Shown here: one piece after another, positions 19,255-56,243 of the stretch
Layout: each line of letters starts with the position of its first letter
Position numbering within the stretch: position 1 is the stretch's first letter
DNA from: Eledone cirrhosa
Lineage: Eukaryota
Direction of reading: 5' to 3'
Length of the DNA stretch: 64,000 nt
Assembly (NCBI GenBank): GCA_964016885.1
Contig: OZ024742.1
Coordinates: 350,052,001 to 350,116,000, forward strand
Notes under the pieces: model-generated
The model's database searches: none
Seen by the model: only the letters and a program-made list of their open reading frames with translations
What the model was told of the DNA's origin: nothing
Made by a program: the position numbers and the translations under genes

Positions 19255-19468
19255 ATATGAAAAGATTCAGGACCCCGACAGCTGAGCTCCGGCTGTTTCG
19301 ACATCTAGATCCAGACTAAAGCCTTTATTTCGGATCTAGCTGTCGAAACAGCCGGAGCTCAGCTGTCGGGGTCCTGGATCTTTTCATATTACTCACTCTA
19401 CTATTCCAAGTATTGAATACTCTAGTGGGTTGTGGTCCACCTGGTTTTTACCACATCCAATCTGATAT
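19255..19468 (+). mobile_element. Short fold-back element (family X, diverged subfamily) with hammerhead 3' half
   Basis: Inverted repeat 19255-19389 plus one-sided tail to ~19468. GAAAC-AGC-cggagctca-GCT-GTC at 19345-19367. (TA)n on both flanks. Confidence 0.8.
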
Positions 19469-19538
19469 ATATATATATATATATATATATATATATATAT
19501 ATATATATATATATATATATATATATTTATTTATTTAT

Positions 19539-19786
19539 TTAGTTATGTAATAAACAACATAAGATAATTATTTCATTTACCAGTTGTTTCTTGAAGTCAG
19601 ATGTTGTGGCTGTCTTCAAGAAACCACTGGTAAATGAAATAATTATCTTGTTGTTTATTGCATAACTAATAAGCTGTGTAGCCTACAAAGAGCACTCCTT
19701 TTTGAATATATATATATATATTCAATATTGTTTATTACATAACTAATAAGCTCTGTAACCTACATAGAGCACTCTTTTTTGAATAT
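19539..19786 (+). mobile_element. Short fold-back element (separate family) with duplicated tail
   Basis: Inverted repeat 19539-19669. GAAACCACTGGTA at 19620. Tail to ~19708, repeated at ~19727-19786. (TA)n flanks. Confidence 0.7.
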
Positions 19787-19811
19787 ATATATATATGTAT
19801 ATATATATATA

Positions 19812-20023
19812 TATAACGAAGGAAATGTGGTAAGGAACCAGATGGACCATAACGCACCAAAGTACTCAATACTTAGGGTAGTAGAGTGGGTAATAGGAAC
19901 AAGTATGACCCCGACGGCAGAGCTCAAGCCGTTTCGACGGCGAATTCTGGACGGTTAATTCTAGTCCAGAATTAGCCGTCGAAACAGCTTGAGCTCTGCC
20001 GTCGGGGTCATACTTGTTCCTAT
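19812..20023 (-). mobile_element. Short fold-back element (family X)
   Basis: Inverted repeat 19893-20023 with the tail on the left (19812-19892). Both arms carry GAAAC-(A/G)GC-ttgagctct-GCC-GTC. Confidence 0.85.
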
Positions 20024-20044
20024 ATATATATATATACATAGAAA

Positions 20045-20215
20045 TATCACATAAGAAACGGAGAATCAGTGGTGCGACGAATAAGATTTATTAGACATAT
20101 TACAATTGTTTTCTGGCAACCAGCTCGAGGCACGATCGATGCAATGATCAAACCTGACTCTGAAATCGCAAGGTCCTCAGATATGTCACGATTCTACGAA
20201 GTAGAGTTTCCAATT
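20045..20215 (-). repeat. Dispersed repeat homologous to 52015-52190 (opposite orientation)
   Basis: Shared CCAGCTCGAGGCACGATCGATG...ACCTGACTCTGAAA..GCAAGGTC.TCAGATA block. Confidence 0.7.
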
Positions 20216-51947: not shown

Positions 51948-52232
51948 AATATGGTTTTATAAAGATATTTCCATTTATTAATATTATTGATTCTACGAAG
52001 GAGGGTTTCGTTATTAGGAAAATCTGCTTCGTAGAAACAAGACGTATCTGACGACCTTGCCATTTTCAGAGTCAGGTTCGATCATCACATCGATCGTGCC
52101 TCGAGCTGGTCGCCAGAGAAACGATTGTAATATGTCCAATGAATTCCATTCGTCGCAAAACTGATTCTTTTTTTTTTTGTGATATCATACTCTGCTCTAT
52201 TCATCCAACAGCAATTATATATATATATATAT

Positions 52233-52630
52233 ATATTTCGTTTCTGAATTTGTTTAGCAAGATTCTTTATCTGAAAACGTGTGTTGAAACCGATATTGTT
52301 ATCCTTTGGGAGGGCCATGTTGCCAATAAGAAACATACGCACCAGTTGCTTTCACTCCAATTTATTATAAATTAAATTTATAAATTTAAGAATTTATAAA
52401 TTTCCGGTTGGTTGGTTGGTTCCACAAGTTCTTTGACAATAAATGAACTTTGACAATATATGAACAACCGTCCGGTTGTGGAACCAACCAACCAACCAAC
52501 CAAAAAGAAATTTAAAAATTCTTAAATTTAAAAATTCTTAAATTTATAAATTTAATTTATAATAAATTGGAGTGAAAGCAACTGGTGCGTGTGTTTCTTA
52601 TTGGCAACATGCCCCTCCCAAAGCATAAAT
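52233..52630. mobile_element. Fold-back pLTR element (49050-49376 family)
   Basis: Arms ~52293-52427 and 52476-52630, tail on the left (52233-52292), (TA)n flanks. Confidence 0.8.
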
Positions 52631-52793
52631 ATATATATATATATATATATATATATATATATGCAAAAGTTCTATTTAAAATTGTTGGGATACAACAAGT
52701 AAATATTTTTATAACTGATATAAAGCACTCGACAAGTATTTGGAGTAGATATACGATATTAATAAATGGAAACTATATTTATAAAACCATATT

Positions 52794-52858
52794 TATTTCA
52801 TTATACATATTTCAGGGATACCAAATTAAATTATGGTATGCCTTCATCAGACAAAATA
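52794..52858 (-). ncRNA. Minimal type I hammerhead
   Basis: Mirror of 54443-54507. Confidence 0.8.
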
Positions 52859-54442
52859 CAATATATAACAGTTTTACAAATAAGCTTTGACGTACCCTAT
52901 TAAAATGCAACCATTGTTTTTGGAAGCCATCCTGATAGTGATTTGTTTATATTACTTTAATAAGTCATAGTGTTAAGGACAATTTTTTTAAATTTTTAAA
53001 TTTTTAAATTATATTGATATAATATTTATTTAACTTTTATTTTATTTTTATTTTTATTTATTTTTATTAGTTTTGCTTTGATTCTGATAGCTTCTCATAA
53101 TTCTCATAAGTCTACCCTTTCAATATCTTGATTGAAATATAAGTAGGATAATTTTCTATACTAAATATATGAAACATATTATTTTAACTTAAGATACTCT
53201 ATAGTGTTTTAAAGATATTGAATGCTTTGACATTTCTAGAATTCGTTTGTCCTTTTGACTATATTGATATAGTTGTATTTCCAAAATATAATCCTTTGGT
53301 ATTTTAAATTTATATTGGTATAATTATATTTCCAAAGTATAACCCTTAGTAATATATTGATATTTGATTATCTCTATACAAATGTCTATGTGTGTATTAA
53401 CATGCATATAAAAGTGTTATAGGTTTTTTATGATTGTATATATGTCTGTATGTATACATGAGTGATGCGTGAAGACGCACGCAGATATTTATTTATACTT
53501 ATATAGGTGTATATGTATATGTGTGTGTGTGTATGTATATGTGTGGGTAAGAGTTATGTTGCATAACCACGCAGTTTAGATTACAGATATGCATAATTTT
53601 AACAAAATGTTAAATGCATGAATGGTAATCAAATATATGAAGACATGAATGTTAATCGTATATATTTATGTATATATATTGTGAACTTTTTATAACCCAA
53701 GGGATGTATAGCAGTGATTAAGAGAAATCGTCTGCGTTTTATATGTCTATATTGTTGACTTGAGTAAATATAATTTCTATTTTCAGGACGTGCGTGTATA
53801 TATATATATATATATATATATATATATATATATATTTGTGTGTCTTTGCCTGAGATACTGACTTCTCTAGCAATGTGTACATTTTGGAGATTAAACCCAA
53901 ATTTTGGTATATTGATCTCAAGGTTGAAACCAAACATATAGTCATTATTAAACAATGTTTAATTTCTCATATTATATATCTATGTCCCATTCATGAATAT
54001 TAATATTTATATTTTTATTATTCATTTCATATAAATTGTTAACTCAACTTAATATGACATGACGTAAAGTTTTCATAATCTCCCTCTCTCTCTATATATA
54101 ATATTTCTCTCTCTTGAGTTTTTCTATCTGTCTGTTGACTTAATATCTCTCTGTTGCTTTCCTCTGTTTTTCTTACTTCTTCCTTTTTTCTTCTTTCTTC
54201 CTTTCCTCCTGTCTTTACTTATCTCTTTCTTTTTTCTCCATGCATCTCTCTCTCTCCGATATTTCTCCACGTTTTTTTCTTTCTCTCCGTCTTTTTCTTT
54301 CTCTCCGTCTTTTTCTAATTGTCCTTAACACTATGACTTATTAAAGTAATATAAACAAATCACTATCCGGATGGCTTCCAAAAACAATGGTTGCATTTTA
54401 ATAGGGTACGTCAAAGCTTATTTGTAAAACTGTTATATATTG

Positions 54443-54507
54443 TATTTTGTCTGATGAAGGCATACCATAATTTAATTTGGTATCCCTGAAATATGTATAA
54501 TGAAATA
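54443..54507 (+). ncRNA. Minimal type I hammerhead
   Basis: TATTTTGT-CTGATGA-AGGCATACCA...TGGTATCCCT-GAAAT-ATGT-ATA-ATGAAATA. Confidence 0.8.
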
Positions 54508-56243
54508 AATATGGTTTTATAAATATAGTTTCCATTTATTAATATCGTGTATATATATATATATATATATATATATATATATATATATATATATATATAT
54601 GCAAATCATAGTTGTAGAAAACAGGGTCTCTTGCCCTAATTTAATTACTGTGATCATTCGAAAGATGCTTTTTTAGAAGTAAAGAAATCCTTTTGTTATT
54701 TTTATCTCATCATTTCTACTTTCACTTTCGTTGGTATTACCCACGATTTTAGGTTCCATTCATTATTTCTCTTTATGTTAAGATTTCTATACAAACGTCT
54801 TTGTCAATAATGTTTGTTAATGTAATTAGATAATGGAGCGTCTCTCCTTCTCTGTCTATGTATCTCTCTCTCTATTTTTGACTTGATAGTAAGCTTTAGA
54901 AATCTTCCAAAGAAAGGAAGGATTCTTTAACATTGTGATGAATGTCAGAGTTTCAGGATCAATAGCAACAACAACAACAATAATAGACGAAAGAAAATTA
55001 AAGACTGTATTAATCAGCATATGTAGAGTAGCCTACAGTAATCAAGAAAGAAGCTTAACAGGCAGAAAAAATATTGGCCGGCAGCTTCTGTATTTAAAAG
55101 ATAACAGAAGAATCACAAACCTAAGCATAAAGAAGATCAAAAACGTACTCAGAAAAAAAAACTGTTCACCAGAAGCGACGGTGGAAATGTGTTTAGATCC
55201 ATCATTTGTAGCATTTATAACTTTTACTACAATGAACGGTTCATATAAAAGCAATCTCATGAAATGTTACTTTTCACCTATATTTCTTCCAAAATGTTAT
55301 CTTTTGGGGTGAAGGAATTCTTCCTTTTCTCACCGATAATAGATATCTGAGAAGAATATCGAATGAAAGAGTTAAGATACCCCAAACAGATATGTAGATT
55401 TTAGGGTAGTGAGGATGTAGGTCTGATTCAGATCTTAATACTATGTAGCTATCATTCTCTATGATAGTGGTATAGTATATTGTTTTGAGTGACGAATTAT
55501 TAAAATAGCATACTCCTGTACATGGCAAATGCTGACATCAGCAGAATTTAGTCAATAAGCTTTCTTCAAAATTATGAGACTGGGAAGTTATTTTAGCCTG
55601 AAGAATCTAAACCTGAATCTTATTGGTGATTTATATTTGATTCTTCTTTTTGCGAGGAAACTTAATTCAAGAACTTTCAAAAGCAAGCAAACTTTATTAG
55701 CGCCCGAACAAAAAGAATGGTACAAATTACTGGCAGCATTATTGAAAGAATTTTCTGACAGTATGATGAAAGGAGAAATAAAATAAAATGAAATGAAAGC
55801 CACATTATGATGATTCAGTACAAAGACGAGAAAACAATGCTTCATACTAGGAGCATTAATCATTAAATTCCAGATATGAATAACATAAATTCTATCTTTT
55901 AAAAGTCTGATTACAATAGAGTCATTAATTTCAACAAAACGAAATGTGGGTTTTTGAAATAAGTAACCTTGCAAAATACAGTTTTTGATCAGGGAGGATG
56001 CATTTGTATTTTCATAAAGCAGTCGCCAAATTGTGACCCGCGAAACCTTGATAGATCCCAAATGGTAGTATTGCGACCCGAAACCTTGATAGATCCCAAA
56101 TGGTAGTATTGGGGCCCGAAAGAGAAGTTTAAAATCTCAAGACTATGCAGTATAAAATATATAACTACTCATGACAAGGATGATCAAAATAAACTTCTAA
56201 AATTTTAGATTCCTTTAAATAGTATAATATTTTGAACCAAGGT

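Follow-up and report, generated by a model that had tools for sequence, protein, structure and literature searches.

Asymmetric inverted insertions in (TA)n tracts of Eledone cirrhosa: apparent Penelope-like elements with two defined ends

A series of dispersed repeats in the genome of Eledone cirrhosa is inserted in (TA)n tracts according to a single asymmetric plan, in which a short arm, a fold-back and a long arm that continues into a tail are enclosed between two runs of (TA)n. The stretch of DNA analysed here (the window) comprises 64,000 nt of contig OZ024742.1 in assembly GCA_964016885.1, from position 350,052,001 to 350,116,000, and all coordinates below count from its first letter. 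It is AT-rich animal DNA with a 9.7-kb satellite, repeats resembling short interspersed nuclear elements (SINEs), two L1/Tx1-like fragments of LINEs (long interspersed nuclear elements) as well as numerous (TA)n runs. Within families the insertions end at two fixed sites, a short and a long one, and most two-ended insertions join one of each. In our judgement the elements are probably several families of endonuclease-bearing Penelope-like elements (PLEs), of Hydra type and Neptune/Nematis type, together with noncoding derivatives inserted in (TA)n, and these PLE insertions cover 15,903 of the 35,291 nt of the region studied. An earlier note on this DNA, made from its letters alone, had drawn the same plan but ascribed it to unrelated families, which is true at the DNA level only, since all of them look like PLEs.

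Asymmetric fold-backs between (TA)n runs

A census of fold-backs was taken over the 57 segments that lie between merged runs of (TA)5 or longer, 17 of which were excluded as being shorter than 60 nt or starting within the microsatellite at 1431-4700. An inverted pair reaching the TA edge was found in 10 of the 40 segments examined, and two elements that span internal TA runs (29934-34333 and 52663-54549) were added by hand. All 12 fold-backs are asymmetric, as the earlier note had anticipated, one end having 0-12 nt of spare sequence and the opposite end 36-148 nt, and none of the 12 has the symmetric terminal inverted repeats expected of a miniature inverted-repeat transposable element (MITE) or another DNA transposon with terminal inverted repeats. 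Two further two-ended insertions, W2 (29702-29908) and Y35 (35442-35674), have arms without overlap, and their ends were set by homology; the results below thus concern 14 two-ended insertions of seven families. The elements were oriented by their ORF or hammerhead, and any target-site duplication would be concealed by the (TA)n itself. A masked self-comparison of the window gave 106 alignments. As a control, the ends of other dispersed repeats lay within 4 nt of a (TA)5+ edge in 0 of 40 cases, the background being 0.87%.

Four insertions that the earlier note did not list (34577-35011, 29702-29908, 35816-36683 and 29934-34333) share the same build. Most tail lengths that it gave are close to those found here, namely 79, 80 and 79 nt in family X, 36 nt in the element at 19539, 59 nt in a 4-kb palindrome, 62 nt in the element at 52237 and 90 nt in that at 52663, but the tail at 22585 is 148 nt long rather than about 80. 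Its recurrent short ends also recur where it placed them in most cases: AATATCGT is the terminus at 34334 and 54548, TTCCTAT stands at 20023, 20976 and 35103, and AGTATAACAATAT stands at 579 and 23645, but the proposed copy near 52630 is degenerate and reads AGCATAAATAT. Position 32665, which had been paired with 52661 as an end, turns out to be an internal junction between a pseudo-long terminal repeat (pLTR) and an open reading frame (ORF), where sequence runs on into the minus-strand ORF (ATG at 32619); the partner of the short end at 34334 is the long end at 29934, in the insertion Z1.

Two fixed ends, one of each

The distance from short to long site is constant in the four multi-copy families: 79, 80 and 79 nt in X, 59, 58, 62 and 59 nt in Y with the 4-kb palindrome, 90 and 90 nt in Z, and 89 nt in W1, whose long site is also where W2 terminates. 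A long end is paired with a short end in X1, X2, X3, the 4-kb palindrome, Y52, Z1, Z2, W1 and W2 (nine of the 11 two-ended insertions of these families), while pairs of two long or two short ends are absent among all 14. If each end were chosen independently at 50:50, the probability of nine mixed pairs in nine would be 0.5^9 = 0.002. The expectation of exactly one long and one short end per insertion therefore stands in the window for these nine, with no like pairs, and fails in two insertions that have one end off the family sites. The two defined joining sites per element that had been postulated are likewise supported, and they agree with the two start sites of reverse transcriptase (RT) in the anole element PAc (PMC11167929; here and below, papers are cited for those parts of their text that were available). 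T, U and V are single insertions, asymmetric in build, with no second copy that could show fixed ends.

The two arms of one insertion cluster together in eight of eight four-way comparisons (1-19 columns each), and no column groups the arms by type, which argues that the inversion was made, or homogenised, at each insertion. X4 is less clean, its own arms being 86% identical to each other and 88-95% identical to other copies. Between the arms of the 4-kb palindrome there are 30 substitutions in 1995 columns, 20 of them transitions, and outside this element arm-to-arm identity ranges from 86 to 99.6%.

Coding evidence for Penelope-like elements

Direct evidence of PLE identity comes from the two families with ORFs, represented by Z1 and the 4-kb palindrome; their motifs, together with whole or partial hammerhead ribozymes in the remaining families, bear out the earlier identification. 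Z1 (29934-34333, minus strand) carries a 2.1-kb ORF (32619-30534) broken by frameshifts, in-frame stops and the loss of the endonuclease C terminus. Its motifs are IRWC (32514), DKT (32269), YRDD, CxCX5C (CNCRNKSNC at 30821) and YVG, and tblastn aligns it with P0100 at E = 9e-102. The Hydra clade is diagnosed by RWK, DKT and CxCX5C, and families of this clade, one of them from Octopus, are listed with (TA)n targets (PMC8557442). Both Z1 and a second ORF fragment beginning at 48014, with the linker CNCRNRVDC at 48454, have DKT, CxCX5C and a (TA)n target and lack CCHH, RWK being RWC here. Pfam gave no match for the six Hydra-type fragments. Around the Z1 ORF, 29934-30544 recurs at 32668-33274 (96% over 611 nt) as a partial tandem of the pLTR, and the ORF-bearing copy has lost the endonuclease C terminus and part of the untranslated region (UTR) at 30544/30545. 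Two readings of this region were rejected: 33275-34044 is not a 5'-specific leader, its sequence being 3' UTR, and Z1 and Z2 have no fixed RNA 5' end in common, as Z2 reaches about 130 nt further.

The second fragment (48014-49373) is composite, a Hydra-type ORF piece (48014 to about 49050, minus strand) standing head-to-head with a Y-family pLTR of Neptune/Nematis type (about 49060-49373, plus strand), whose long end lies in (TA)n and is the one end that can be assigned; a 21-nt duplication marks the joint (49009-49048). It may be a chimeric insertion across clades, or else one insertion nested in another with a later deletion.

The 4-kb palindrome (23649-27747) is a 5'-truncated PLE of Neptune/Nematis type with arms at 23649-25643 and 25697-27688 and a tail at 27689-27747. 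Its ORF fragment (25638-27119, plus strand) covers the RT palm and thumb with YVDD, a CX4CxxC linker (CTNRKCIIC at 26745) and a GIY-YIG domain, with an internal stop at 26925, and is mirrored by an open frame on the minus strand (24191-25642). The CX2-5CxxC linker and a CCHH in the endonuclease, which define Neptune/Nematis elements, are both present, the CCHH as two C in the GIY-YIG core and two downstream H. Pfam matches to RVT_1 (E = 4.5e-4) and GIY-YIG (E = 2.4e-3) are both below the curated cut-offs, and among the 99 + 20 homologue rows the best is a named Octopus vulgaris protein at 65%. Sequence searches against solved structures returned bacterial RTs only. A structural model of the RT (predicted local distance difference test, pLDDT, 84) had no Foldseek match at E<=0.001, its best being a group II intron RT, and in a VIA-align comparison with telomerase RT (TERT), the expected sister of a PLE RT, it scored Z 5.8 (root mean square deviation 5.1, 211 aligned), not above unrelated rows. 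A scan of bacterial and archaeal genomes for stray copies found no relative among 16 pattern matches.

The 4-kb palindrome has its terminal 81 nt in common with the Y copies, and these correspond to codons 1-27 of the ORF. This start of a next ORF copy (27667-27747, plus strand) has the short end at codon 8-9 and the long end at codon 27, so that unlike copies have AGTATAACAATAT in common because the tail is the ORF start, as in Adineta vaga, where pLTR and tail are described as spanning the first 22 codons (PMC3846280). The tail has no stop in the ORF frame in four of four copies and one to three stops in every other frame, and it resembles the N termini of long homologues (P from <0.001 to 0.048 for all 20, and P<=0.002 for four picked by eye). 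Variable columns by codon position number 6, 5 and 10, with non-synonymous changes exceeding synonymous ones; as this bias is weak, the coding claim is based on the open frame and on homology, not on a signal of selection. No coding homology was found for the tails of X, T, U, V, W and Z.

Hammerhead ribozymes

Rfam reported no hammerhead at E<=1, its 129 sub-threshold matches being nearly all microRNA models on microsatellites and hairpins, and a custom descriptor was used instead. In its strict form for type I hammerheads it gave 10 matches (five in Z, three in W and two in V), against 0.13 per shuffle in 30 shuffles. A type I hammerhead is predicted on the sense strand of the pLTR in Z, W, V and U. 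W and Z are alike in ribozyme type and geometry, with 48-50 nt from the cut to the short end and a tail of 89-90 nt, and the predicted ribozyme of U has the U3-A8 core variant, which has been reported for PLEs (PMC4209133). In X, GAAAC and GUC accompany a 5-bp stem III whose palindromic loop is invariant, and T has a weaker version of the same; X is probably the 3' half of a hammerhead and T possibly one, neither extending beyond that half. Y and the 4-kb palindrome have a hammerhead core and stem II, with non-canonical stems I and III and no report in the strict scan. An antisense hammerhead in the Y tail was rejected, as it was a single chance-level match at 49339 and the tail is coding. Hairpins are predicted by folding in most tails.

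TA overlap at the junctions and position of the fold

Among the 18 termini beyond which the native continuation of an element is visible, 13 show an overlap of at least 3 nt between that continuation and the flanking (TA)n. Counted per family site, an overlap of at least 3 nt occurs at five of 10 sites when the minimum is taken and at six of 10 when the median is taken, compared with 15% among 4768 simulated junctions (P = 0.010 and 0.0014). Overlaps at long sites are among them (5 nt in Z, 4 nt in V), the continuation past a long site being visible only in Z, V and U, and in these three the short and long sites look alike to the eye. The inversions of X1-X4 and T are centred 11-23 nt upstream of the ribozyme GAAA, the expected position of loop II. 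Stem II, we infer, may have served as a ready-made inverted repeat for folding; no such copy in the window has the 5' half of the hammerhead.

How the inversion might be made

The ways of producing such insertions differ in what they predict for the 5' reach of the two arms. Under pure snap-back of one cDNA the copied arm can contain no extra sequence, and therefore the tail-bearing arm should always reach furthest 5'. The short-end arm, however, reaches further in four of six clearly informative insertions: Z2 (1565 vs 322 nt, the surplus being native UTR with 70% identity to Z1 over 1466 columns), V (556 vs 312 nt), W2 (167 vs 44 nt) and Y52 (201 vs 191 nt). The tail-bearing arm is the longer in Z1 (4111 vs 289 nt) and in the 4-kb element, where the 53 nt of the loop belong to the right, long arm as native ORF sequence in frame. 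In U each arm contains sequence of its own; X1, W1 and T show symmetry or give no clear picture, and in X2-X4 the difference is only a few bases. Because the arms of four insertions each hold sequence that the other lacks, priming from both sides is favoured over the resolution of a hairpin. The earlier proposal that one site primes and the other only resolves the copied hairpin is accordingly less favoured, and it survives only if later deletions trimmed the hairpin centres.

We lean, by a modest degree, towards priming from both sides of a break, with one start site each, followed by head-to-head joining of the cDNAs. The RT-GIY-YIG protein would cut both strands of (TA)n, and both 3' ends would act as primers of reverse transcription at internal positions of the element RNA, the first using the distal (long) site and the second the proximal (short) site, each usually aided by an internal UAU or AUAU that pairs with the TA end over 3-5 nt. 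The resulting cDNAs, having the same polarity, could be joined only head-to-head, where an inverted microhomology or a hairpin native to the element (stem II of the ribozyme, for instance) allows it, and fill-in would then yield short arm, fold and long arm with its tail, the tail representing the RNA between the two start sites. The window itself shows the PLE identity of two families, the ribozyme motifs, the two fixed ends, their mixed pairing, the overlap with TA and arms made at each insertion. Two-strand cleavage and the two start sites are taken from in vitro literature on another clade; two-sided priming, annealing, the joining of the cDNAs and the coupling of one site of each kind (for example through a dimer bound to a single RNA) are our inference. 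Whether TA-targeting PLEs of at least two clades share such coupled two-sided priming, using the long and the short site once each under TA/UA guidance and often closing at hammerhead stem II, is a more tentative matter, and we would give this generalisation somewhat less than even credence. If true, closure at stem II would generate hairpin elements of about 200 nt that lack a ribozyme, and coupled priming would be a genomic rule unseen in the published in vitro system, giving a joint account of tail, inversion and microsatellite bias.

Several observations weigh against two-sided priming and the PLE assignment on which it builds. All evidence comes from 14 two-ended insertions of seven families in a single 64-kb window, and two of the 11 insertions from multi-copy families depart from the pairing rule, X4 joining a short end to one 66 nt past the long site and Y35 joining a long end to an unassigned one. 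The start sites of PAc are reported to be non-homologous to the cut DNA and alike on both strands, which would predict random pairing (PMC11167929). Five of the 18 termini lack a TA zone (T, U twice, Y52 and W2). Arms that end at a nearly identical 5' point (the 4-kb palindrome within 53 nt, W1 and X1) fit snap-back of a single cDNA more simply, and the split in arm reach, counted with the X copies (3/9), does not differ from 50:50 (P = 0.25). Arm polarity may moreover be secondary and produced by later deletions, as palindrome centres are prone to deletion. The hammerhead 3' half is frequent by chance, with 25 matches outside the elements, the covariation in stem III of X amounts to one event and is not significant (60 of 500 shuffles), and X, T, U, V and W have no linked ORF here.

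The best-surviving alternative, which we consider unlikely though worth weighing, supposes that in the same PLEs one cDNA primed at the long site snaps back and copies itself as far as the short site, where it is cut or annealed, with later deletions reshaping the centre. This would necessarily give one long and one short end, it suits the near-perfect hairpins W1 and X1 and the 4-kb element, whose loop is long-arm sequence, and a TA-like short site could be an endonuclease (EN) target; the tail has been ascribed to 'EN-mediated resolution' (PMC8557442), and junction palindromes have been read as self-priming (PMC3846280). It requires, however, that the long arm alone lost sequence in Z2 (about 1.2 kb), V, W2 and Y52, and it sits poorly with the unique sequence in each arm of U. 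Both boundaries of the PAc tail are RT start sites in vitro (PMC11167929), and the unit is described as carrying its tail at either end (PMC8557442), which also speaks against it.

Far less probable is that X, T and W move as ready-made hairpins, whether as MITE-like DNA elements or as whole-hairpin RNAs, with an asymmetry inherited from a master copy. The fold points of the four X copies do fall within about 12 nt, W1 and W2 begin at the same 5' base, and an inverted repeat flanked by TA looks like a MITE. Yet symmetric terminal repeats are absent from all the fold-backs, the arms cluster by insertion and never by arm type (a pattern that gene conversion between arms could mimic), and the ORF-bearing families have hammerheads and the same geometry. 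Inversion after insertion, by breakage at (TA)n with fold-back repair or fork U-turns, or an assembly artefact is highly improbable, for although (TA)n is prone to breakage and palindromes are known to arise as artefacts of sequencing, the duplicated DNA is limited to element sequence and ends at family-fixed sites, the arms truly differ (by the 30 substitutions in the 4-kb palindrome and by the divergence seen elsewhere), and no other repeat in the window behaves so.

Relation to known systems

The present work is mainly a rediscovery, as the architecture is known for PLEs, and what it adds are mechanistically useful regularities from one window. Inverted 5'-truncated copies, a tail that is often at one end only and (TA)n targets have been published for PLEs (PMC8557442, PMC8969392, PMC3846280). 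Hydra-clade elements such as Hydra-1_Obim and Penelope-13_HM share with Z and its relatives the RWx, DKT and CxCX5C motifs, the lack of CCHH, the (TA)n targets, a type I hammerhead near the 3' end and a 5'-truncated inverted copy at the 5' end (Craig et al. 2021, PMC8557442); the differences are IRWC instead of RWK and tails of 89-90 nt in Z and W, compared with the published 30-40 bp, a length that most tails here (36-148 nt) exceed. Neptune/Nematis elements have the same C-terminal GIY-YIG, CX2-5CxxC linker, CCHH, microsatellite target and terminal repeat covering the ORF start, from which the 4-kb palindrome and Y differ in a tail of 58-62 nt and in non-canonical hammerhead stems I and III.

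The closest mechanistic parallel is PAc, a Poseidon element of Anolis carolinensis (Frangieh et al. 2024), in which both strands are cut and extended, the enzyme is predicted to be dimeric, and two internal RT start sites downstream of the hammerhead bracket the tail at AT-rich targets (PMC11167929). The start sites there are described as non-homologous to the cut DNA and alike for both strands, whereas the insertions here are enriched in TA overlap and use each of the two sites once. Non-LTR retrozymes are noncoding units of 51-972 bp with a type I hammerhead, derived from PLE pLTRs (bioRxiv 10.64898/2026.07.22.740005), a size range into which the circularly permuted units U (about 573 nt) and V (556 nt) fall. 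The published retrozymes form tandem arrays, whereas units here stand head-to-head with long and short ends; U and V have one hammerhead per arm, on opposite strands, and not the tandem of at least two successive units, every one with a complete type I hammerhead, by which a retrozyme is defined, so that they may work like a retrozyme monomer without being classed as one. In Schistosoma, opposite-strand hammerhead pairs 100-700 bp apart have been traced to truncated PLEs (PMC4209133), and PLEs are reported as abundant in O. vulgaris, with no structural detail in the text available (PMC13282606, PMC8969392).

Twin priming of LINE-1 offers another comparison. There, the second target end primes internally on the RNA and a 5' inversion results, which is the geometry of W2 and Y35. 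The elements described here differ in that the internal site is fixed and near the first, and in that the cDNAs usually overlap, giving a duplication.

In the literature searched, no earlier account was found of the one-of-each rule, of overlap with TA at the two sites, of tails of 59-148 nt or of folding at loop II, though older reviews may contain one. These regularities bear on a published open question, as the formation of tandem and inverted PLE structures and the microsatellite bias are named as unexplained in PMC8557442, and the steps after first-strand synthesis are described as unvalidated in PMC11167929. A copy-rich genome makes three predictions countable without experiments: a long end paired with a short one, overlap with TA at the two start sites, and a fold at loop II. 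For annotators, TA-flanked hairpins of 180-450 nt are to be read as PLE remnants rather than MITEs or microRNA precursors, several of them drawing sub-threshold matches to Rfam microRNA models.

Individual insertions

In family X, X1 (19259-19464) runs from a short end at 19259 over a fold centre near 19322 to a long end at 19464, with a 79-nt tail, and each arm has the candidate hammerhead 3' half (GAAAC, 5-bp stem III and GUC). X2 (19816-20020) has its long end at 19816 (tail 80 nt) and its short end at 20020, X3 (20979-21166) its short end at 20979 and its long end at 21166 (tail 79 nt), and X4 (35106-35351), one of the two exceptions, has a short end at 35106 and a long arm that overshoots the family site. 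T (19527-19705) consists of a short arm, a fold centre near 19604 and a 36-nt tail, with a weak candidate hammerhead 3' half; its tail and (TA)n junction recur in a local 77-nt tandem duplication (19728-19782).

U (22586-23583) is a noncoding, circularly permuted unit with the short end at 22586 and the long end at 23583 (tail 148 nt); its predicted U3-A8 hammerheads, one per arm, have cores at 22747 (minus) and 23274 (plus). V (35816-36683) has its long end at 35816 (tail 89 nt), a left arm that ends at the first base of hammerhead stem I, and a right arm (36128-36683) that spans exactly one period of 556 nt, with the short site at its start and again at its end. This single case is what copying once around a circular RNA, or an insertion of the element into its own short site, would be expected to give.

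W1 (34577-35011) has its long end at 34577 (tail 89 nt), a near-perfect hairpin (34666-35011) and its short end at 35011, with predicted hammerheads at 34768 (minus) and 34909 (plus). W2 (29702-29908) places 44 distal tail nt head-to-head with the 167-nt short-end arm and has a hammerhead core at 29811. Z1 bears its long end at 29934, followed by the 3' pLTR and the broken ORF; upstream of these lie a truncated copy (32668-34044) and the inverted 289-nt arm (34045-34333) with the short end, and the predicted hammerhead cores are at 30120 and 32854 (minus) and 34237 (plus). Z2 (52663-54549) has the long end at 52663 on its 322-nt arm (tail 90 nt) and the short end at 54549 on the 1565-nt arm of native 3' UTR, with hammerheads predicted at 52850 (minus) and 54451 (plus). 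A diverged relative of Z and W at 51820-51984 has a hammerhead that looks intact; on the left, in (TA)n, it has what resembles a long end, and on the right, with no (TA)n, it terminates near the short site.

Y52 (52237-52628) has the long end at 52237 (tail 62 nt), a fold near 52428 close to a hammerhead-like stem III, and the short end at 52628. Y35 (35442-35674), the other exception, has its long end at 35442 on a 75-nt inverted piece, joined to a sense arm with a hammerhead-like core, and its right end is off any family site. A Y-family short end also lies in (TA)n at 583-640 on the minus strand, where it is the only end found.

Other repeats in the window

A further repeat family, at 20037-20211 and 52017-52215 (85% over 151 nt), has no fold-back, and both copies start beside (TA)n. 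A direct repeat of 683 nt (58858-59538 and 60597-61276, 96%) surrounds a satellite of 10-nt units and is edged by (ATAC)n; it could be another microsatellite-targeting element. The 9.7-kb satellite (4789-14535) has a unit of 16/32 nt. Two broken L1/Tx1-like LINE copies (42150-47765 and 61913-64000), recognised by Pfam through an AP endonuclease and an RT, are about 70% alike over 2.1 kb, and a 277-codon open frame at 57740-58573, with no Pfam match, looks by eye like the C-terminal zinc-finger and nuclease end of a non-LTR element. A SINE-like family of about 190 nt, which presumably resembles an octopus SINE, has at least 12 copies, among them 15727-15920, 18790-18980, 40303-40513, 56714-56903 and 57610-57811.

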